DNA of 30,675 bases from a virus. Lineage: Duplodnaviria > Heunggongvirae > Uroviricota > Caudoviricetes. Position 1 is the first letter of the stretch; every line of letters starts with the position of its first letter. The stretch is from the IMG/VR virus record IMGVR_UViG_2721755724_000001. One strand, 5' to 3'. A program made the position numbers and the translations under genes. The notes under the pieces are model-generated. The model made no database searches, had not been told where the DNA came from, and saw nothing but the letters and a program-made list of their open reading frames with translations. Shown here piece by piece: positions 4,771-29,813 of the stretch.

Positions 4771-4827
4771 AAAACGGCGGCAGAGCAGTCACGGAGTAAA
4801 ACTGATACCGCCAAACGTCACCAGAAA
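4771..4827 (-). ncRNA. dicF: DicF small RNA (ftsZ-targeting) with intrinsic terminator hairpin
   Basis: Minus-strand sequence UUUCUGGUGACGUUUGGCGGUAUCAGUUUUACUCCGUGACUGCUCUGCCGCC followed by GUUUUU matches DicF as recalled; GGCGG...CCGCC stem plus U-run. Confidence 0.85.
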
Positions 4828-6371: not shown

Positions 6372-7317
6372 ACGCCCACTGGTTATAAACACACAGCTTG
6401 CGATGAAGATTGGCTTAAATGAAGCCATTGTGTTGCAGCAGTTGCATTACTGGTTGAGAGATACCAATTCCGGCATGGAATGTGATGGTGTTCGCTGGAT
6501 TTACAACACAACGGAACAATGGCTGGAACAGTTCCCATTCTGGTCAGAGTCAACGTTAAAGCGCGCGTTTGCAAGTCTGAAAACGCTGGGGCTTTTGCGT
6601 TGTGAAAAGCTCAATAAATCAAAGCGCGATATGACCAATTTCTACACGATCAACTATGGGAACGAGCTTTTAGATGGTGGCAAATTGAACGAATCCATCG
6701 GTTCAAAATGCGCCGCTCCATCAGGTCAAAATGACACGATGGAAGAGGTCAAAATGAAACGCTCCATTGGTTCAAAACGACCCAATGTCATCGGGTCAAA
6801 ATGGCCTGATGATCTTACAGAGAATACAACAGAGATTACTACAGAGAATAAAAACACTTTTCGTCCGGAAGCTTCGCAACCGGACCCGCAGACCGCTGAA
6901 CAGGATTTTTTAATCCGGAACCCCGACGCGGTTGTGTTTAGTGCGAAAAAACGCCAGTGGGGTAGCAGGGAGGATTTGGCGTGTGCGCAGTGGATTTGGG
7001 GGCGGATCGTGAACCTTTACGAACAGGCTGCCAGCGACGATGGAGAGATCATGCGACCAAAAGAGCCTAACTGGACAGCCTGGGCCAATGACGTGCGCAC
7101 AATGCGGATGCTGGATGGCAGAAGCCACAGACAAATTTGCGAAATGTTTGGTCGGGTACAGCGAGATCCATTCTGGGTAAAAAACATCATGAGCCCGTCA
7201 AAACTCCGCGAAAAATGGGACGAACTGGTCATCCGCTTGGGACGTTCACCTGTACAGCGTTGTGTGAATCATATTTCTGAACCGGATACAGAAATTCCGC
7301 CTGGTTTCAGGGGATAA
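6352..7317 (+). CDS. Phage replication initiator / replisome organizer (O-like)
   Basis: N-terminal winged-helix-like region (ERPLVINTQLAMKIGLNEAIVLQQLHYWL...), a central linker encoded by an iteron array, and a C-terminal region resembling DnaT/replication protein C-termini; start taken as the ATG at 6352. Confidence 0.65.
   Translation: MSLLFAERPLVINTQLAMKIGLNEAIVLQQLHYWLRDTNSGMECDGVRWIYNTTEQWLEQFPFWSESTLKRAFASLKTLGLLRCEKLNKSKRDMTNFYTINYGNELLDGGKLNESIGSKCAAPSGQNDTMEEVKMKRSIGSKRPNVIGSKWPDDLTENTTEITTENKNTFRPEASQPDPQTAEQDFLIRNPDAVVFSAKKRQWGSREDLACAQWIWGRIVNLYEQAASDDGEIMRPKEPNWTAWANDVRTMRMLDGRSHRQICEMFGRVQRDPFWVKNIMSPSKLREKWDELVIRLGRSPVQRCVNHISEPDTEIPPGFRG
6695..6805 (+). repeat. Five direct iterons (core GGTCAAAATG-like) at 23-24 bp spacing, followed by an A-rich stretch: probable phage origin inside the initiator gene
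   Basis: TCAAAA cores at 6703, 6726, 6749, 6772 and 6796; A/T-rich ACAGAGAATACAACAGAGATTACTACAGAGAATAAAAACAC follows at 6810-6850. Confidence 0.6.
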
Positions 7318-7644
7318 GTGTTGATTTCAGGTCATGAGGTAATTTTAAGGAGGACTTGTGGCAAAAGTTTTTACACAGGAAGAGCGGGAAAAAATTAAAG
7401 AGCAGGTGGTCGAACTTGTGCGCCAGAGCGGTCGCGAGACATTACGACAGTTGGAAGCTAAAACAGGTGCGACAAGATATCTGATGAGCATTCTTGCCAG
7501 AGAGCTGGTTGCCAGTGGTTATGTATACAACTCCGGCTACGGGTTATTCCCGTCTGAACAGGCACGAAAGGACTGGCAAAATGCCCGCAAAAAACTCTCT
7601 AGGGCGAAGGTGAAGAAACCCGCTGTGGTTGATTGGATTTGCCC

Positions 7645-8550
7645 CTATATTTCCAGACATCTGTTATCACTTAACCCATTACAAGCCCGCTGCCGCAGAT
7701 ATTCCCGTGGCGAGCGATAACCCAGCGCACTATGCGGATGCCATTCGTTATAATGCTCGAACGCCTCTGCAAGGTTCTTTGCTGCCGTTAACCCGTCTGG
7801 TTTGGGCATGATACTGATGTAGTCACGCTTTATCGTTTTCACGAAGCTCTCTGCTATTCCGTTACTCTCCGGACTCCGCACCGCCGTGTTCTTCGGTTCA
7901 AGTCCCAACATCCGGGCGAACTGGCGTGTTTCATTAGCCCGGTAGCATGAACCATTATCCGTCAGCCACTCCACTGGAGACGACGGAAGATCGTTGCCGA
8001 AGCGGCGTTCCACCGCTCCCAGCATGACGTCCTGTACTGTTTCACTGTTGAAGCCGCCGGTAGTGACCGCCCAGTGCAGTGCCTCACGATCACAGCAGTC
8101 CAGCGCGAACGTGACACGCAGTCTCTCTCCGTTATCACAGCAGAACTCGAACCCGTCAGAGCACCATCGCTGATTGCTTTCTTTCACGGCCACTCTGCCT
8201 GTATGTGCCCGTTTCGATGGCGGTACAGCAGGTTTTCGCTCAAGCAACAGCGCATTCTGGCGCATGATCCGGTAAACACGTTTGGCATTGATCGCAGGCA
8301 TACCATCAAGTTCTGCCTGTCTGCGAAGCAGCGCCCATACCCGACGATAACCATACGTGGGCAGCTCTCCGATAACATGGTGTATACGGAGAAGCACATC
8401 CGTATCATCAGTGTGACGACTGCGGCGGCCATCCATCCAGTCATCGGTTCGTCTGAGAATGACGTGCAACTGCGCACGCGACACCCGGAGACAACGGCTG
8501 ACTAAGCTTACTCCCCATCCCCGGGCAATAAGGGCGCGTGCGCTATCCAC
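7645..8550 (-). CDS. insD: IS2 transposase OrfB (InsD), full length
   Basis: 301-aa ORF ending ...[37 protein letters not shown]; normally expressed as an InsCD frameshift fusion. Confidence 0.9.
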
Positions 8551-8873
8551 TTTTTTGCCCGTCCATATTCAACGGCTTCTTTGAGGAGTTCATTTTCCAT
8601 CGTTTTCTTGCCGAGCAGGCGCTGGAGTTCTTTAATCTGCTTCATGGCGGCAGCAAGTTCAGAGGCAGGAACAACCTGTTCTCCGGCGGCGACAGCAGTA
8701 AGACTTCCTTCCTGGTATTGCTTACGCCAGAGAAATAACTGGCTGGCTGCTACACCATGTTGCCGGGCAACGAGGGAGACCGTCATCCCCGGTTCAAAGC
8801 TCTGCTGAACAATTGCGATCTTTTCCTGTGTGGTACGCCGTCTGCGTTTCTCCGGCCCTAAGACATCAATCAT
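8508..8873 (-). CDS. insC: IS2 transposase OrfA (InsC)
   Basis: 121-aa product [26 protein letters not shown]... matches IS2 InsC. Confidence 0.9.
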
Positions 8874-9273
8874 CTGTTCTCCAATGACTAGTCTAAAAAC
8901 TAGTATTAAGACTATCACTTATTTAAGTGATATTGGTTGTCTGGAGATTCAGGGGGCCAGTCTATTGATCCGGACCTTATCTGGTCACTACCTGATGGAG
9001 AAATACGTCGCTACGACAGTCGTCTAAACATAATCTGTCGCGAGTGCCGGAAGAGCGAAGTTATGCAGCGCATACTGGCATTTTATCAGTGAAATTTTCG
9101 TTATTTATAGACGTAACTAGATTAAAGAGCATTAGTTCAGATGTGAATTGACATTTTCACGGCACAGGATTGAGCTAGCGTGGTTGTCTGCTTTGCGTCA
9201 AAAGCAGATATTACCAGATTTAGACATCTATTCCCGATAGCCCTGCTCTGATGCCACACTCTGTGCTATTTTC

Positions 9274-9735
9274 ATGACCCCAATAAAAATATTTATGACT
9301 ATTGCTGATTTCAAACGGCCTAAATTGGAGCTCCCAAACGGGGCAAACAAACTACTACTGCACTCTTGCTGTGCTCCATGTTCCGGTGAAGTGATGGAGG
9401 CGCTTCAGGCCTCGGGAATCGACTATACCATCTTTTTCTACAACCCGAACATTCATCCTCAGAAAGAGTATTTAATTCGTAAGGATGAGAATATTCGCTT
9501 TGCTGAACAACACGGCGTGCCATTTATTGATGCTGATTACGACACAGACAACTGGTTTGAACGTGCCAAAGGAATGGAATGGGAACCCGAGAGGGGGATC
9601 CGTTGTACCATGTGTTTTGACATGCGTTTTGAGCGGACAGCGCTGTACGCTGCTGAAAATGGTTTCAGTGTGATCAGCAGTTCACTGGGCATTTCACGCT
9701 GGAAAAATATGCAGCAGGTTACCGTCACTGGATAA
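9274..9735 (+). CDS. QueH-family (DUF208, epoxyqueuosine reductase-like) protein, short form
   Basis: 153-aa ORF with the family-typical [12 protein letters not shown] block plus FFYNPNIHP and RCTMCF motifs; ends after ...[13 protein letters not shown], shorter than the canonical enzymes as I recall them. Confidence 0.55.
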
Positions 9736-9810
9736 TCTCAGTCAGATTGCCTTACTCCGAACGCCCACCGCGTCCGTCCCGTACATTCCAGCAACGCATC
9801 TGGAGGTAAC

Positions 9811-10860
9811 GTGCGGGTATTACTTCAACCTGTTCTGGTACCGGAACTCGGGCTGGTGGTCGTTAAGCCGGGCCGTGAATCCATGCCGGTATTCCACAAT
9901 ACCCGGGTACTGGTGGAGCCGGAACCGAAAAGCATGCGTAATCTGCCGTCCGGGGTCGTTCCTGCCGTTCGCCAGCCGCTGGTGGAAGACAAAACATTGC
10001 TGCCGTTTTTCAGTAACGCACGGGTAATTCGTGCTGCTGGTGGTGCTGGTGCATTGTCTGACTGGCTGTTGCGCCATATTAAATCCTGCCAGTGGCCACA
10101 CGGCGATTATCATCACAGCGAAACCGTTATTCACCGTTATGGTACCGGCGCAATGGTGTTGTGCTGGCACTGCGACAACCAGCTGCGTGACCAGACATCC
10201 GAATCACTCGAGCAACTTGCTCATCAAAACCTGTCAGCATGGATGATTGACGTCATCGGTCACGCAATAAGCGGTACGCAGGAGCGTGAATTATCTCTGG
10301 CTGAATTATCCTGGTGGGCGGTCCGCAATCAGGTGGCGGACGCGCTACCGGAAGTGGTATTACGTCGCTCGCTGGGATTACCAGCGGAAAAAAACTGCTC
10401 GGTGTACCGCGAAAGCGACATCGTACCGGGAGAGCAGACCGCCACCAGCATATTGAAACAGCGCACAAAAAATCTTGCACCGTTGCCTCACGCCCACCAG
10501 CAACAAAACCCATCACAGGAAAAGACGGTGGTAAGCATCACCGTTGATCCAGAGTCTCCGGAATCTTTCATGAAGCTGCCTAAACGTCACCGTTGGGTTA
10601 AGGAGAAATACACACGCTGGGTTAAGACACAGCCGTGTGCTTGCTGCGGTATGCCAGCCGACGATCCGCATCATCTGATTGGTCACGGGCAGGGCGGAAT
10701 GGGAACCAAAGCACATGATCTCTTTGTGTTGCCTTTGTGCAGAAAGCATCACGACGAGTTGCATACGGATACCGTGGCATTTGAAGAGAAGTATGGCTCC
10801 CAACTGGAGCTGATTTTTCGATTTATCGATCGCGCGCTGGCAATTGGTGTGCTGGCCTAA
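9811..10860 (+). CDS. DUF968-family prophage protein (YdfU-like)
   Basis: 349-aa ORF, GTG start with GGAGG Shine-Dalgarno; Cys/His-rich C-terminus ([21 protein letters not shown]...CRKHHDELH); position just upstream of Q as in Qin. Confidence 0.75.
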
Positions 10861-10877
10861 TTTTGTGGAGTAAGTTG

Positions 10878-11255
10878 ATGCGTGATATTCAGATGGTTCT
10901 TGAGCGTTGGGGGGCATGGGCGGCTAATAATCATGAAGATGTGACCTGGTCGTCCATTGCCGCCGGTTTTAAGGGATTAATTCCTTCAAAAGTAAGATCT
11001 CGTCCGCAATGCTGTGACGATGACGCGATGATCATTTGTGAATGTATGGCTCGCCTGAAAAAAAACAACAGCGATTTACATGATTTATTGGTGGACTATT
11101 ATGTCGGCGGCATGACTTTTATGGCGCTTGCACGTAAGCATGGGCGATCTGATTGTTGGGTTGGCAGGATGCTCCAGAAAGCTGAGGGCGTAGTGGAGGG
11201 CATGCTGATGGTGTTGGATCTCCGATTGGAGATGGATGCTGATTGTTCGAAATAA
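10878..11255 (+). CDS. Late-gene antiterminator Q (QuuD-type)
   Basis: 126-aa product [33 protein letters not shown]... closely matches the DLP12 QuuD antiterminator as recalled; GGAG Shine-Dalgarno upstream. Confidence 0.85.
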
Positions 11256-11289
11256 TTAAAGGAAAAGTTGCTGTCTGATTTTCATTAGT

Positions 11290-11353
11290 CTAACATTTTA
11301 AATGTTGGAATCGCAACGTAGTTATTATCATATAACAGCTTGTTTCCTGATTT
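11290..11353 (+). promoter_or_regulatory. Candidate late promoter (PR'-like) and Q-utilisation region
   Basis: TTGGAA...TATCAT/TCATAT promoter-like hexamers immediately after Q and before an intrinsic terminator; assignment by position and motif only. Confidence 0.3.
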
Positions 11354-11383
11354 AGCCAGCCTCCCCAAAGGCTGGTTTTTTTC
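11354..11383 (+). terminator. Rho-independent terminator (tR'-like)
   Basis: AGCCAGCC-TCCCCAAA-GGCTGG hairpin followed by a 7-T run. Confidence 0.6.
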
Positions 11384-11410
11384 TAATAAGTATCATTTCG
11401 GGTGGGGATT

Positions 11411-11935
11411 TTATTGTTTAACCCATAATAGTTCATTGACATTGAATCCCAACTTTTGAGCGGTACGCACATAGTCTGCTTTTACATTATCTGGAATAGT
11501 TTGGGTCCTTGCCAGAATCCATAGGTATTCTCTGTTCGGACCACTGACAAGAGCATACTTATACTCATCATCCAGTTTGATTACATTATAGCCACCATAG
11601 AAGGGGCCAAAAAACGAAACTTTCAACGCTGCAGTTTTAGTATCTCCAGTAAAGTATGCTTTACCTTCGCTCTCGCTCCATTTGTTTTTCGTTGGATCGT
11701 ATCCACGGTTAAGTACGCGAATCCCTCCGTCGTTCCGTTTTTCATAAGTAGCGCTGACCTGTTCCAGACCACGTTCGAACCAGTTCTCGAGGCGAGCTAT
11801 TTCATACCATTTTCCGAGGTAGCGGTTGGCGTCAAAATTTGTAATCGGCTGCACACCTTTAGGTGGTGTCGGGGCCTTACATGCTATAAGAGTGAAAGAG
11901 AGTGCAATGCCAGTCAACACAGGCCATAACTTCAT
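11411..11935 (-). CDS. blc: Bacterial lipocalin (Blc-family outer-membrane lipoprotein)
   Basis: 174-aa ORF with lipoprotein signal peptide (LIAC lipobox) and strong similarity to E. coli Blc throughout (NFDANRYLGKWYEIARLENWFERGLE..., KVSFFGPFYGGYNVI, YLWILART). Confidence 0.8.
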   Translation of the reverse strand: MKLWPVLTGIALSFTLIACKAPTPPKGVQPITNFDANRYLGKWYEIARLENWFERGLEQVSATYEKRNDGGIRVLNRGYDPTKNKWSESEGKAYFTGDTKTAALKVSFFGPFYGGYNVIKLDDEYKYALVSGPNREYLWILARTQTIPDNVKADYVRTAQKLGFNVNELLWVKQ

Positions 11936-12127
11936 AATAAATCCTGTACTTTTGATAGTTGAGAGTAAGTATGAAAGATAGATGAGTACGACCGATCACT
12001 TAAAGAACTTTCCTACTATATTAGGAATAGTCAATAACAGAAAAATTGTCAGTGATGAAGCCAGAAAGGCAATTTAGTCCGTGCACTACAAAGTTTATGT
12101 GTTAATGAATTAGTCAAGGGGGAGGAA

Positions 12128-13087
12128 ATGATAAAAAAACCTGTGATTGGGATCAGCGGTTGTTTGGGCGGTTCTGCTGTTCGTTTTGATGGTGGTCACA
12201 AAAGAGATGACTTTTTAATGGACAAATTAGTGGAATGGGTAACATTCAGACCAGTATGTCCGGAAATGGCTATAGGGCTGCCAGTTCCGCGTCCTGCTCT
12301 ACGACTTGTGCGCTCGAAGCAAGGAAATATACGGATGTGTTTCAGCCACGACCAGAATGAGGATGTGACAGAGAGAATGACAGAGTTTAGTCGTTCTTAT
12401 ATGGACAAATTAAAGGATGTATCGGGTTTTGTGGTTTGTGCTAAATCTCCCAGCTGTGGCATGGAGCGCGTGCGTGTCTATGATGAAAATGGTAATCGAG
12501 GTCGTAAAGATGGAGTGGGACTATTTACGAGCACTTTGATGGAAAAGTTTTCCTGGCTACCGGTTGAAGAGGATGGGCGATTACATGATCCAGTGCTTCG
12601 TGAGAATTTTATTGAAAGAGTTTTTGCTTTGCATGAGCTCAATCACCTTTACAAGGAGAAATTATCAAGAAGAGAGTTATTAGCTTTTCATAGTCGTTAT
12701 AAGCTTCAGTTGTTGGCGCATAGCCAGGCAGGCTATAAAGATATGGGACCATTTGTGGCTGCAATACACGAGTGGGCGGACCTTGAATCATACTTTGAGG
12801 TGTATCGTGATAATCTGATGGCGATTCTCAGAAAACCAGCATCACGTAAAAATCACACGAATGTGCTGATGCATATACAGGGGTATTTTAGTAATTACTT
12901 AAGTACACGCCAGCGTAAAGAGTTGAGCGAGGTTATACTTAACTATCGCTTTGGCACATTGCCTCTTCTTGCGCCGTTGACTCTGCTGAAGCATTATCTG
13001 GGTGAGTATCCTAATGATTACTTGCTTACACAGAATTACTTCGATCCCTATCCGGAAGAACTGGCTCTAAGACTGATGGTGAATTAA
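12128..13087 (+). CDS. Two-domain DUF523 (TudS-like thionucleobase desulfidase family) / DUF1722 (YbgA-like) protein
   Basis: 319-aa ORF with GGGGGAGG Shine-Dalgarno; N-terminal Cys triad (GISGCLGG, PVCPE, AKSPSCG) typical of DUF523 Fe-S proteins; C-terminal half resembles YbgA. Confidence 0.65.
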   Translation: MIKKPVIGISGCLGGSAVRFDGGHKRDDFLMDKLVEWVTFRPVCPEMAIGLPVPRPALRLVRSKQGNIRMCFSHDQNEDVTERMTEFSRSYMDKLKDVSGFVVCAKSPSCGMERVRVYDENGNRGRKDGVGLFTSTLMEKFSWLPVEEDGRLHDPVLRENFIERVFALHELNHLYKEKLSRRELLAFHSRYKLQLLAHSQAGYKDMGPFVAAIHEWADLESYFEVYRDNLMAILRKPASRKNHTNVLMHIQGYFSNYLSTRQRKELSEVILNYRFGTLPLLAPLTLLKHYLGEYPNDYLLTQNYFDPYPEELALRLMVN

Positions 13088-13385
13088 CTGTATGCGATAT
13101 CATCTGAAAGTGATGAGTTCCTGTATGCAGGATATTTACAATCGTAAAAACTACGCTATGATGCTCATAGTGTCAGTTTTTATAAAAATCCTGTTCACGC
13201 TAAAGAAAACATTGAGATGCAATTTAATGTTGGTAAACATACCAGCCCCAAAAGATTTTATTCAATCTGTTTTTATATGAAGATATTTCAAGTGAATATA
13301 AAGAGCATATAATATTATTATTGCACGCAGGGTGATGCTGCCAACTTACTGATTTAGTGTATGATGGTGTTTTTGAGGTGCTCCA

Positions 13386-13661
13386 GTGGCTTCTGTTTCT
13401 ATCAGCTGTCCCTCCTGTTCAGCTACTGACGGGGTGGTGCGTAACGGCAAAAGCACTGCCGGACATCAGCGCTATCTCTGCTCTCACTGCCGTAAAACAT
13501 GGCAACTGCAGTTCACTTACACCGCTTCTCAACCCGGTACGCACCAGAAAATCATTGATATGGCCATGAATGGCGTTGGATGCCGGGCAACTGCCCGCAT
13601 TATGGGCGTTGGCCTCAACACGATTTTACGTCACTTAAAAAACTCAGGCCGCAGTCGGTAA
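13386..13661 (+). CDS. insA: IS1 InsA
   Basis: 91-aa product [37 protein letters not shown]... matches IS1 InsA. Confidence 0.95.
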
Positions 13662-14084
13662 CCTCGCGCATACAACCGGGCAGCGATGTGATTGTCTGCG
13701 CTGAAATGGACGAACAGTGGGGCTACGTAGGTGCTAAATCACGTCAGCGCTGGCTGTTTTACGCGTATGACAGGATACGGAGGACGGTTGTGGCGCACGT
13801 CTTCGGTGAACGCACTCTGGCCACACTGGAGCGTCTTCTGAGCCTGCTGTCGGCCCTTTGACGTGGTGATATGGATGACGGATGGCTGGCCGCTGTATGA
13901 ATCCCGCCTGAAGGGAAAGCTGCACGTAATCAGCAAGCGATATACGCAGCGAATTGAGCGGCATAACCTGAATCTGAGGCAGCACCTGGCACGGCTGGGA
14001 CGGAAGTCGCTGTCGTTCTCAAAATCGGTGGAGCTGCATGACAAAGTCATCGGGCATTATCTGAACATAAAACACTATCAATAA
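13580..14084 (+). pseudogene. insB: IS1 insB, frameshifted
   Basis: InsB-homologous sequence is split into two frames around 13855-13865 (...LSLLSAL* then [15 protein letters not shown]...), consistent with a 1-bp insertion relative to canonical IS1. Confidence 0.75.
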
Positions 14085-14271
14085 GTTGGAGTCATTACCT
14101 GCACGCAGCTATTATAATATAACAGATTAGTTTAATGATTTGTTTTTTGTGAGTTAAACACATGGTTTTATAGTTGTGATGCAATGAGATTTTCCTTATT
14201 GTTGAACTGGCGAATATTGATTTTCCACCTATACTTACCTGGTGTAACCCCAATGATATCAGGTGGATAAT

Positions 14272-17296: not shown

Positions 17297-17659
17297 ATTA
17301 ATATTAAATCGGATTATTTTTAGCGCTGAATGTGAAATTTAAATAAAAAGGACTCTTCCATGAGTCAAAATCCTTGAAATCTTAAGGGTAAGATAAAAGG
17401 TCATTAGACAGAATGACACGTTTTATTAATAAATAAAGCTATTGTTTCATTCGTGTGTTTTTCTTTACAAAAGTAATCCTTGCTATGGTTGGTTAATCAT
17501 GCGTTAATGGTGTTCTGGTTTGTTACAAAATTATCTGAAGCAGTCATTGTTATAATTTTATTATTTGTACCTCTTGAGATTTCCTTGTTGGTTTTTCTCT
17601 CTGATATTTTTTTTCGGACCATTCTGCCCAAGGGCTAACTTCTTCAAAAGGTAATAATG

Positions 17660-17872
17660 ATGTCTAACACAATGACTGGTTTAGTGAAATGGTTTAACCC
17701 TGAAAAAGGTTTTGGTTTCATCACGCCGAAAGATGGTAGCAAAGATGTGTTTGTCCATTTCTCAGCTATTCAGAGCAACGATTTCAAAACGTTAACTGAG
17801 AATCAGGAAGTCGAATTTGGTATTGAGAACGGACCTAAAGGCCCCGCGGCTGTTCATGTTGTGGCACTTTGA
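17660..17872 (+). CDS. cspI: Cold-shock protein, CspA family (CspI-like)
   Basis: 70-aa product [70 protein letters not shown]; preceded by a long AT-rich leader of about 350 bp. Confidence 0.85.
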
Positions 17873-18071
17873 GGTAGAAAATATTACAAACCATATTCAC
17901 TTTAGATGCCCGTGTTGCCATGGTTCTCAGTATAGAACATCATCTTTTGATGTTTCTGACAGGAATCCTTTCGGGGCAAAATGTATCTTTTGTAAATCAA
18001 TGATGATTACATTTGATAATATTTCACAATACTTAAATGTTAGCCGTCTATCGTTAGATTTAAGAAAGTGA
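17856..18071 (+). CDS. Small Cys-rich protein in the ynfN position (possible zinc ribbon)
   Basis: Frame encoding ...[41 protein letters not shown]...; start uncertain; position after cspI matches Qin gene order. Confidence 0.4.
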
Positions 18072-18257: not shown

Positions 18258-19124
18258 CTAAGCGAGGTTCTTGTTTTCAAATTGTTCCGGACTGAGGCCG
18301 CCACACCAACTGTGCCGCCGCCACCGATTGTAATCACATTCGATATAATTAAACACCGTTGCCCGCATTATTTCCCGGCTGATAAAGTGTTCTCCATGGA
18401 TACATTCCACTTTCAGCGAATGAAAGAAGCTTTCCACGCAGGCATTATCGTAGCAGCAACCTTTTGCGCTCATACTTCCACGCAGATTATGCCGCTTCAG
18501 TTGCGCCTGATAATCTGCTGAACAGTACTGGCCTCCACGGTCCGTGTGAACGATAACGTTCCGGGGCCTCTTACGCCGCCACAGCGCCATCTGCAGGGCA
18601 TCGCAGGCCAGTTGCGCCGTCATGCGTGGCGACATTGACCAGCCAATAACGGCACGTGACCACAGGTCAATGACCACTGCCAGATACAGCCAGCCTTCAT
18701 CTGTACGTAAGTACGTGATGTCTCCTGCCCACTTCTGGTTCGGGCCACTGGCGTAAAAATCCTGCTCCAACAGATTTTCTGACACAGGCAGGCCGTGTGC
18801 GCGGTAGCTGACCGGGCTGAACTTCCGGGAGGCCTTTGCCCTCAGTCCCTGACGGCGCAGGCTTGCCGCCACGGTTTTTACGTTAAAGGGGTAACCCTGA
18901 GCACGCAGTTCATCCGTCAGGCGTGGGGCACCGTAACGCTGTTTTGACCGGGTAAAAGCCGCGAGGACAACGCTGTCGCAGTGTTGGCGGAACTGCTGAC
19001 GCGTGCTTATCCTTGTCCGCCGCTGACACCACGTATACCAGCCGCTGCGGGCCACCCGGAGCACGCGGCACATTGCTTTGATGCTGAACTCAGCCTGATG
19101 TTTTTCAATAAAGACATACTTCAT
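18258..19124 (-). CDS. insF: IS3 transposase OrfB (InsF)
   Basis: 288-aa ORF matching IS3 InsF (DDE catalytic region); normally expressed as an OrfAB frameshift fusion. Confidence 0.9.
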
Positions 19125-25700: not shown

Positions 25701-27612
25701 CGACAAGGTCGGGGGACTCGTCAGCCCGATGACGCAATACGATTGGCCCGTTGTTACTGGTAATGAGTCTTTTTACATAAAGATCGCGAAACTTTCCGAT
25801 CCCGGAAGCAACAATTGCCATGTAACGCTAATGGTTACTAACGGCGGTGACTACGGCTCCCCTTACGGAAACATTGACTTTATCGAGATCTCGGCGCGCG
25901 GTCTGCCTTCTTCGCTTACTGCTGATAATGTATCTCGTTACCTGAGTATACGCCGTTTAGGGCCAACCGGGCTAATCAATAGCATGCAAATGCGTTACGG
26001 CCTGGTTAAAGATGATGGCTTTATTGAGGTTTGGGCCTTCCAGCGTGCATTTATCAACGGCGCAAAGGTTGCGGTACTGGCGCAGACGGCACGCACGGAA
26101 TTATACATTCCAGACGGATTTGTTAAGCAAACCGCCGCGCCTTCTGGATATGTTGAAAGCCCCGTTGTAAGGATTTACGACCAGTTAAACAAGCCGACTA
26201 AAGCAGATTTGGGTCTTTCTAATGCTATGCTTACAGGCGCTTTCGGTCTTGGCGGTAGCGGGATATCAACAAACGGCAAGATGAGCGATGTAGAGATCTT
26301 AAAAGCTCTGCGTGACAAAGGTGGTCATTTCTGGCGCGGTGATAAGCCGACCGGAAGCACGGCGACCATTTATAGCCACGGTTCTGGTATATTCTCGCGG
26401 TGCGGCGATACGTGGTCAGCGATCAATATCGACTACTCAACCGCGAAGATTAAGATCTATGCCGGCAACGATGCCCGGCTTAACAACGGGACTTTTAGCA
26501 TCAATGAGCTATACGGCTCGGCAAACAAGCCGTCGAAATCGGATGTTGGACTTGGCAACGTAACGAACGATGCGCAGGTAAAAAAAACCGGCGATACAAT
26601 GACCTGTGACTTGACAATCAAAAAAGGTACACCGTCAGTCTTCCTGCGGGCAGACAGTGGAGTCACCGCTTTGCGGTTTTATACTGGCGATAACACAGAG
26701 CGCGGCATAATCTATGCTGGTCCTAACACTGATTCGCTTGGCGAAGTTCGCATCAGGGCAAAGACAGCAGGGGGGACATCAGGAGGGGATCTTGTTGTTC
26801 GTCACGACGGGAGGGTTGAAGTCCGTGATCTCACAGTAGCGTATAAAATTAAAAGCAGAACGATTGAGATTGCAAATACCGACACTGACTCATCGGCAAC
26901 TACGCTCAGCATCTATGGAGTACAGCACACGCCGTTGGTTTTAACGCGTTCTGGTTCTTCTGAAAATGTGTCCATTGGGTTTAAGTTAGACAACATGAAC
27001 CCAAAGTATCTTGGAATTGATACTAATGGGGATCTGGCTTTTGGTGAGAGTCCTGATCAGAAACAAAACAGCAAATTGATCACGCAAGCGAAACTCGACA
27101 AGGGATTAACGATTGGTGGTCAACTGGCTTTCAAAGGTACGACAGCGTTTTCAGCCGTTGCTACGTTCAGTGCCGGGATAGCAGGAGCCATCGAGCCGGA
27201 AAACATTGACGGCCAGACGGTTAATCTTAACAACCTGACCATCATCAAGTCAGATGCCGGGGCAGTTAAATACTATATTTGTCCATCCTCTGCAGGTGGT
27301 GCAAATATTACCAATAAGCCTGACGGCATAGCCGGTAACTTTTTGCTCCGTGTAGAGTCGACTCGTAAGGTTAGGGATTCAGATTATGCGAACATGCAAA
27401 CGCTGATTAACAGCGACACAAAACGTATATACGTTCGCTTTGTTGTTAATGGAAACTGGACAGCGTGGAGTCAGGTTGTTGTTTCCGGATGGAATCAGGA
27501 TATAACTGTCAGGTCGTTAACTAGACTGGCCCCCTGAATCTCCAGACAACCAATATCACTTAAATAAGTGATAGTCTTAATACTAGTTTTTAGACTAGTC
27601 ATTGGAGAACAG

Positions 27613-27978
27613 ATGATTGATGTCTTAGGGCCGGAGAAACGCAGACGGCGTACCACACAGGAAAAGATCGCAATTGTTCAGCAGAGCTTTGAACCGGGGA
27701 TGACGGTCTCCCTCGTTGCCCGGCAACATGGTGTAGCAGCCAGCCAGTTATTTCTCTGGCGTAAGCAATACCAGGAAGGAAGTCTTACTGCTGTCGCCGC
27801 CGGAGAACAGGTTGTTCCTGCCTCTGAACTTGCTGCCGCCATGAAGCAGATTAAAGAACTCCAGCGCCTGCTCGGCAAGAAAACGATGGAAAATGAACTC
27901 CTCAAAGAAGCCGTTGAATATGGACGGGCAAAAAAGTGGATAGCGCACGCGCCCTTATTGCCCGGGGATGGGGAGTAA
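27613..27978 (+). CDS. insC: IS2 transposase OrfA (InsC), copy 2
   Basis: Identical 121-aa product to copy 1. Confidence 0.9.
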
Positions 27979-28757
27979 GCTTAGTCAGCCGTTGTCTCCG
28001 GGTGTCGCGTGCGCAGTTGCACGTCATTCTCAGACGAACCGATGACTGGATGGATGGCCGCCGCAGTCGTCACACTGATGATACGGATGTGCTTCTCCGT
28101 ATACACCATGTTATCGGAGAGCTGCCCACGTATGGTTATCGTCGGGTATGGGCGCTGCTTCGCAGACAGGCAGAACTTGATGGTATGCCTGCGATCAATG
28201 CCAAACGTGTTTACCGGATCATGCGCCAGAATGCGCTGTTGCTTGAGCGAAAACCTGCTGTACCGCCATCGAAACGGGCACATACAGGCAGAGTGGCCGT
28301 GAAAGAAAGCAATCAGCGATGGTGCTCTGACGGGTTCGAGTTCTGCTGTGATAACGGAGAGAGACTGCGTGTCACGTTCGCGCTGGACTGCTGTGATCGT
28401 GAGGCACTGCACTGGGCGGTCACTACCGGCGGCTTCAACAGTGAAACAGTACAGGACGTCATGCTGGGAGCGGTGGAACGCCGCTTCGGCAACGATCTTC
28501 CGTCGTCTCCAGTGGAGTGGCTGACGGATAATGGTTCATGCTACCGGGCTAATGAAACACGCCAGTTCGCCCGGATGTTGGGACTTGAACCGAAGAACAC
28601 GGCGGTGCGGAGTCCGGAGAGTAACGGAATAGCAGAGAGCTTCGTGAAAACGATAAAGCGTGACTACATCAGTATCATGCCCAAACCAGACGGGTTAACG
28701 GCAGCAAAGAACCTTGCAGAGGCGTTCGAGCATTATAACGAATGGCAATCCGCATAG
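27936..28757 (+). pseudogene. insD: IS2 insD, copy 2, frameshifted near the 3' end
   Basis: Copy 2 reads GAATGGCAATCCGCA where copy 1 reads GAATGGCATCCGCA (one extra A), giving ...EHYNEWQSA* (273 aa) in place of the 301-aa product. Confidence 0.8.
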
Positions 28758-29813
28758 TGCGCTGGGTTATCGCTCGCCACGGGAATATCTGCGGCAGCGG
28801 GCTTGTAATGGGTTAAGTGATAACAGATGTCTGGAAATATAGGGGCAAATCCATTAACCACATCTAGTCCGGTAAAATCTGGCGGAGGGCGAATTGATGT
28901 CCTTGGAAGCACGTCAGACTATAGCAAAATGGATTGCTTTGTACGTGGGTTTGATAGCACCGGTAATTCTCTCGCGTGGGCGTTGGGTTCATCAGCCGGC
29001 GTAAGTAAGATGCTGTCGCTAAAAAATTTCTTTAGCGGAGCTGAGATACTGTTAAATGGTAATGACGGCACGGTTCAACTCAAAACAGGTGCTGTTAACG
29101 GGGCTACAGCGCAGGCGCTCACTATCAACAGGAATGAGGTTAACTCAACTGTTGATTTAACCCTTACAAAACAATCAGGGACTGGCAATCGTTTTGTTTT
29201 ACAGAACTCAGGTAATGCAGAACTACCGTTTTCTGTCAGGGTGTGGGGTTCCAGTACTCGACAAAACGTTTTTGAGGTTGGCACGTCTGCTGCGTATCTG
29301 TTTTATGCGCAAAAAACGTCAGCAGGCCAGTTGTTTGATGTAAATGGCGCTATTAATTGCACAACGCTGAATCAGTCATCAGACCGCGACCTTAAAGACG
29401 ATATTCTCGTTATCAGCGACGCGACGAAAGCAATCCGTAAAATGAACGGATACACCTACACGCTCAGGGAAAACGGGATGCCTTATGCTGGCGTTATTGC
29501 ACAGGAAGTAATGGAGGCGATACCAGAAGCTGTGGGATCGTTTACTCATTATGGTGAAGAGTTGCAAGGTCCGACCGTTGACGGCAACGAGCTACGCGAA
29601 GAAACGCGCTATCTTAATGTTGACTACGCCGCCGTGACGGGCTTACTTGTTCAGTTCGCCCGTGAAACAGATGATCGCGTTACCGCGCTGGAAGAGGAAA
29701 ACACAACGCTACGTCAAAATCTGGCAACAGCAGACACCCGGATCAGCACTCTGGAAAATCAGGTAAGCGAACTGGTTGCACTTGTCCGGCAGTTAACAGG
29801 AAGCGAACATTGA

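Follow-up and report, generated by a model that had tools for sequence, protein, structure and literature searches.

QueH is an iron-dependent (PMC13443448) iron-sulfur enzyme that replaces QueG in the last step of tRNA queuosine synthesis (PMC5372724; PMC13443448). QueG, the native epoxyqueuosine reductase of E. coli, performs the same reaction as intact QueH (PMC5372724) but belongs to an unrelated, cobalamin-dependent family (PMC13443448) and is absent from the DNA analyzed here. RudS_vir, encoded by Escherichia phage 1H12, is, like QueH, an iron-sulfur tRNA-modification enzyme of temperate E. coli phages and lowers the s4U content of E. coli tRNA (PMC11417400), although its family and its reaction differ from those of QueH. 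A 2019 survey of 7-deazaguanine genes in viruses reported no homologues of QueA, QueG or QueH (PMC6884629). Our literature search combining QueH with phage or prophage found no description of a phage-borne QueH.

The stretch of DNA analyzed here (30,675 nucleotides, hereafter the window) contains a QueH-family ORF, which is compared here with the solved Thermotoga maritima QueH (7lc5). Both belong to the same family and share the N-terminal and central cysteine motifs, but the window ORF is without the segment bearing YCGC. The paper on the QueH structure reportedly describes a [4Fe-4S] cluster with an adjacent iron.

Prophage setting and family assignment

The DNA of the window is a defective E. 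coli prophage, lambdoid and of the Qin type. Based on the RefSeq annotation of strains 127 and 22AR0750, the gene order is that of Qin-type prophages (int-xis-exo-dicB/DicF-repressor-replication-ydfU-Q-lysis-tail) and lies between rspAB/ynfA and ydfJ. In strain 127, which was 100% identical to the window over all three regions compared (9100-9950, 8700-9300 and 9722-10900), the first part of the prophage comprises int, xis, exo, ydfD, dicB, the repressor region, a ydaT-like gene, an O-like replication gene and the DUF977 gene. The second part comprises queH, ydfU, Q, the lysis genes, cold-shock genes, and truncated terminase and tail genes. The position of the DicF RNA agrees with the location and organization of Qin. 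Truncation of the terminase and tail genes and the presence of at least four insertion sequences mark the prophage as defective. The features of the locus are listed in Table 1; among these, the Blc-like lipocalin gene looks like prophage cargo.

An ORF was present on the + strand at 9274-9735, carrying the motifs [17 protein letters not shown] and RCTMCF on which the original prediction of a QueH-family protein had been based. Family membership was observed directly. The Pfam profile PF02677 (QueH/DUF208) matched the ORF with 158.1 bits (E = 3.1e-46), above the curated Pfam cut-off of 23.5 bits, and the ORF aligned to 7lc5, bearing out the assignment. Neither comparison recovered a complete domain. 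The Pfam match covered only positions 1-126 of the 175 in the profile and reached the last residues of the ORF, and the structural alignment was confined to residues 4-125 of 192, with the ORF ending at the equivalent of T. maritima residue ~125. No match was found for the truncated protein in NCBIfam.

The length of about 153 residues given at the outset holds if translation is counted from the first ATG, but the start is likely to be the ATG at 9295, since homologues and the RefSeq annotation begin at this second ATG. The predicted product would then begin [16 protein letters not shown] and contain 146 amino acids versus 221 for the intact prophage protein of E. coli. Of the cysteine motifs, the N-terminal CCxPC and the central CxxC were present in the ORF (C25, C26, C29, C104 and C107, each 97-100% conserved among 38 diverse QueH sequences). 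The C-terminal YxQxYCGC motif was absent, with Y182, Q184, Y186, C187, G188 and C189 all deleted.

Table 1. Positions of the queH junction, its neighbors and other annotated features in the window
Feature	Position	Strand	Basis
DicF antisense RNA	4775-4826	-	Rfam, 72.5 bits
DUF977 gene, 5' part; last gene of the replication module, split by IS2	7358..7633	+	Pfam DUF977 profile 1-82/134; RefSeq
IS2 inside the DUF977 gene, which immediately precedes queH; 5-bp target duplication	7634..8964	-	InsC/InsD ORFs; 1,331-bp insert vs 22AR0750
DUF977 gene, 3' part, beyond IS2	8965-9092
5' part of prophage queH (codons 1-142) with CCAPC and CxxC motifs	9295..9721	+	Pfam; 100% identity to intact MEI1O2-23 queH
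Deletion junction; 2-bp microhomology 'TA' common to both parental sequences	9720..9721		Three-way comparison with left and right parents; BLAST breakpoints 9721, 9720
queH-frame read-through, out of frame, into foreign sequence (T-V-T-G, then TAA)	9722..9735	+	Translation vs intact allele
3' remnant (last ~30 codons) of the 92-aa gene preceding ydfU	9722..9809	+	Matches C-terminus of 92-aa protein in MEI1O2-23; RefSeq pseudogene
ydfU (DUF968, HNH-like), intact; right flank of the deletion	9811..10860	+	Pfam DUF968 E = 6.8e-77; 99.8% identical to 22AR0750
Phage antiterminator Q gene (RefSeq start equivalent to 10878)	10863..11255	+	Pfam Phage_antitermQ E = 8e-51
Blc-like outer-membrane lipocalin gene, between Q and the RudS-like gene	11411-11935	-	Pfam Lipocalin_2 E = 7.5e-43
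RudS-like gene, intact, 319 aa; TudS (2-thiouracil desulfurase) domain and DUF1722	12128-13087	+	Cys12, Cys44, Cys110
IS1, flanked by the RudS-like gene and a gene for an AraC-type regulator	13331-14103
cspA-type thermoregulator leader, ahead of the cold-shock gene of the prophage (strain 127: cspI)	17502-17899	+	Rfam, 109 bits
IS3-family transposase gene	18258-19124	-
Second IS2, tail-fibre region	about 27500-28800	+

The deletion junction and the DNA it removed

Matches to the left part of the locus in E. coli mostly ended at window positions 9721-9724, and matches to the right part, among them many phages with ydfU, started at 9719-9720. The breakpoint was directly visible in the comparison with MEI1O2-23, whereby the window was 100% identical up to 9721, within the 666-bp queH, and the match resumed after a gap of 3,371 bp, in the 279-bp gene immediately ahead of ydfU. 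The left flank of MEI1O2-23 is 100% identical to the window, and its gene content is the same as that of strain 22AR0750. Of the undeleted prophages, that of 22AR0750 comes closest to the window and shares its Q, blc-like lipocalin and YbgA-family genes; positions 9719-13091 of 22AR0750 (3,373 bp) are absent from the window, and the flanks of this segment are 98.2% and 99.8% identical to those in the window.

The gene order in 22AR0750 is DUF977-queH-kwaA-kwaB-hokD-rem-92aa gene-ydfU-Q-blc. The missing content could be read directly from both references and consists of the last 79 codons of queH, kwaA, kwaB, hokD, rem and the first ~62 codons of the 92-aa gene. PADLOC bore out the Kiwa pair (KwaA, E = 1e-101; KwaB, E = 1e-159). 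The two genes adjoin queH in the nearest intact prophages, and the window has no such KwaA and KwaB pair. PADLOC returned no match for QueH or for the 92-aa protein.

On the right side of the junction, the sequence [30 protein letters not shown] matches the C-terminus of the 92-aa protein of MEI1O2-23, and RefSeq (strain 127) annotates the 93 bp after queH as what is left of a hypothetical gene, under the label 'missing N-terminus'. The prediction that the ORF stops directly before the DUF968 gene was thus right as to the next gene, ydfU, but the 75 nt between the queH stop and ydfU hold the 3' remnant of a small gene and are not an empty spacer. The 92-aa gene and ydfU are always neighbors in intact prophages, the former ending 1 nt ahead of the GTG start of the latter. 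As the first two-thirds of the 92-aa gene are gone, upstream translational coupling of ydfU, if any existed, may have been lost.

A short ORF of this kind could also arise if an intact gene only appeared short, its C-terminus having been put into another frame just downstream by a frameshift or by a mistake in sequencing or assembly; frameshifted queH copies do occur elsewhere (P0001, P0014 and P0112). However, nothing resembling QueH was seen in the three frames of 9700-9830, residues 143-221 had no tblastn match in the window as a whole (best E 2.4), and the same junction was found at 100% identity in nine complete genomes. The probability of this explanation is practically nil. An assembly artefact is unlikely, because the junction is identical in all nine complete genomes. 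The frameshifted continuation that the original prediction had proposed to look for was rejected: three-frame translation revealed none in 9700-9830, and the search with the 79 missing residues located the lost C-terminus nowhere in the window. Transposition of the C-terminus within the prophage was likewise rejected, as the deleted 3.37 kb gave no blastn match anywhere in the window.

The IS2 copy in the DUF977 gene lies 756 bp upstream, in a prophage with at least four IS copies, and an IS-mediated adjacent deletion, rather than simple illegitimate recombination, could in principle have truncated queH. Against this, the junction abuts no IS end, the 5-bp target duplication of IS2 is intact (corresponding to 22AR0750 positions 8962-8966), and IS2 is present at this site in only seven of the nine genomes with the deletion, CH4784 and NT1F25 having the deletion without it. 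The deletion therefore preceded IS2. As 2 of the 9 genomes dispense with it, IS2 was rejected as the cause of the deletion, and we consider truncation by this element extremely improbable.

Rarity of the truncated allele and conservation of the lost residues

The length of normal family members was assessed using the 120 nearest 90%-identity clusters and complete E. coli genomes. A library of 50%-identity representatives proved unusable for lengths, with only 36 of the 150 best representatives having a complete domain; it is rich in fragments, frameshifted tails and chimeras, because aberrant sequences form clusters of their own. YxQxYCGC was present in 106 of the 120 clusters, with a median length of 219 aa, and the 14 clusters without it were partial, frameshifted or otherwise aberrant. 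A length of about 150 aa is therefore not normal for the family. Short or oddly tailed database relatives are partial, frameshifted or chimeric and form no conserved class.

Rarity of the allele was observed directly by counting. A queH gene was found in 994 of 5,426 complete E. coli genomes (about 18%), and at least 80% of the gene was covered in 985 of these. The remaining nine are exactly the nine genomes that have this junction, all of which match window 9100-9950 at 100% identity; strain 127 belongs to this group. Other independent queH lesions were seen in E. coli and Citrobacter, comprising frameshifts and a different junction after 'SRW' (P0001, P0004, P0014 and P0112). Given these lesions, decay of queH cargo is recurrent, though rare in complete genomes.

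For conservation, 38 QueH sequences were aligned (36 complete library representatives, 7lc5 and the intact E. coli protein), which are 32-72% identical to the E. coli protein. At 28 positions conservation was at least 95%; 22 of these are kept in the truncated product, and the deleted part holds the other six, the residues of the C-terminal motif named above. C187 and C189 are conserved in all 38 sequences, as are C25, C26, C104 and C107. The intact allele aligns to 7lc5 residues 4-178 (E = 5e-22), with the block YCGCV.SL conserved between both proteins. Five of the seven family-conserved cysteines thus remain in the truncated product, and its last 79 residues are missing. The invariance of C187 and C189 suggests that both may serve as metal ligands.

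Taken together, these data indicate that the ORF is very probably a deletion-truncated queH pseudogene, produced by a single deletion of ~3.37 kb and unable to act as an epoxyqueuosine reductase. The ancestor would have carried a 221-codon queH as cargo between the replication module and ydfU-Q of lambdoid (Qin/Rac-type) E. coli prophages; the exact content of the direct ancestor we infer. One illegitimate-recombination event with 2 bp of microhomology would then have fused codon 142 of queH to the small gene before ydfU, of which the final 30 codons were kept, and removed the 3' end of queH, the complete Kiwa system (kwaA, kwaB), hokD and rem. The queH frame now reads four foreign codons and stops. 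With two invariant cysteines and roughly a third of the fold missing, activity is expected to be abolished, and the 146-aa product would be inactive as an epoxyqueuosine reductase. C-terminal truncation, as originally suspected, was thereby confirmed (the profile match ending at position 126, with 79 residues deleted), and among the options offered at that time the deletion evidence favors a decaying remnant.

A contrasting view is that the 146-aa product is a working short QueH, or that it has been put to another use, as a decoy, a module for Fe-S or tRNA binding, or an enzyme acting on other modified nucleotides. It retains CCAPC, CxxC and 22 of the 28 highly conserved positions, the ORF is open and unmutated relative to the intact allele, and nine genomes of different sources carry it. 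However, the allele originated by deletion, ends in an out-of-frame fusion to the remnant of another gene, is without the two invariant C-terminal cysteines and the YxQxY motif, and occurs in only 9 of 994 queH-bearing genomes. The short or odd relatives in the databases, being partial, frameshifted or chimeric, offer no parallel. A working short form is accordingly most unlikely, the remoter reading that the fragment retains some activity is given even less credence, and the special role on other nucleotides that had been raised for the short form received no support.

Two observations count against the pseudogene interpretation. First, the retained part of queH is 100% identical to the intact allele and shows no secondary decay that would confirm relaxed selection; since there are no differences from the intact allele, the deletion looks recent. 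Second, dogs, pigs, humans, river water and salad are the sources of the nine carriers, so that the truncated allele has persisted and spread, which clonal descent could explain. A promoter and terminator scan of 8900-9900 gave nothing above shuffled expectation on the + strand. The truncation itself is already known to public genome records, which flag the gene as a pseudogene; RefSeq, in strain 127, lists it as 'QueH, incomplete, missing C-terminus'. For the window itself this is of little importance, as it concerns a broken gene inside a decaying prophage.

Intact queH as lambdoid prophage cargo

Intact queH was found directly after the DUF977 gene in Qin-type, ST131, O157:H7 and Rac-type prophages and in HannyBb, an Escherichia phage that has been isolated. 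HannyBb also has the intact 221-aa protein of E. coli prophages (WP_021513618.1 and WP_000150294.1). Compared with WP_021513618.1, the window copy is identical over residues 1-142 but is without residues 143-221 and has four foreign codons at its end. The original prediction had called a phage-borne Q-pathway enzyme unexpected. The 2019 survey, which reported none, agrees with this view, but intact queH occupies the same position in the ~18% of complete E. coli genomes counted above and is annotated in RefSeq.

Differences between four full-length alleles were mostly synonymous (dS up to 0.46; dN/dS 0.036-0.059). These values show that the intact phage and prophage gene is under strong purifying selection and, for that reason, is probably a working cargo gene. 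Its nearest relatives are the chromosomal queH genes of Erwinia, Providencia, Photorhabdus and Pantoea (214-222 aa). The chromosomal Enterobacterales proteins are 81-87% identical to the window ORF over its length but are full length, and their genes lie outside prophages in housekeeping neighborhoods, such as purL/glrK in Erwinia and tmcA/purC in Providencia. The phage gene looks as if it was captured from such an enterobacterial chromosome.

Judging from what follows queH, which differs between strains, lambdoid prophages have a variable cargo slot in the interval from queH to the small gene before ydfU, the counterpart of position 9720/9721 in the window. Kiwa, hokD and rem occupy it in MEI1O2-23 (locus coordinates 6862-9804) and in 22AR0750, hokD alone in an ST131 strain (locus coordinates 7667-8226), and a restriction-modification pair, made up of a Dcm cytosine methyltransferase and an endonuclease of the NgoMIV family, in an O157:H7 strain (locus coordinates 7667-10031). 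The window provides an example of one deletion that removed a defence system and clipped the adjoining gene, and it records the joint loss of queH and Kiwa.

Downstream of Q, and 2.4 kb downstream of queH, lies a gene with the domain architecture and cysteine pattern of RudS, a tRNA 4-thiouridine desulfidase; it is intact in the window, whereas queH is not. With this gene present in the window, the undeleted prophage would carry two iron-sulfur tRNA-modification genes, queH and the RudS-like gene. Frey et al. are said to have found in 1988 that epoxyqueuosine accumulates in E. coli when cobalamin is lacking. The most likely role of intact queH, which we put forward as a prediction, would be cobalamin-independent completion of queuosine in host tRNA. 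We see an even chance that queH of lambdoid phages is a captured auxiliary gene, held under purifying selection, that would provide cobalamin-free queuosine in lysogens and, with the RudS-type gene, would suggest that phages tune host tRNA modification.

Intact queH is common (present in 18% of complete E. coli genomes), conserved and carried by an isolated phage, and is undiscussed in the papers searched. It is a candidate for cobalamin-independent queuosine maturation conferred by lysogeny and, with its co-occurrence with a RudS-type gene in one prophage, a modest lead.
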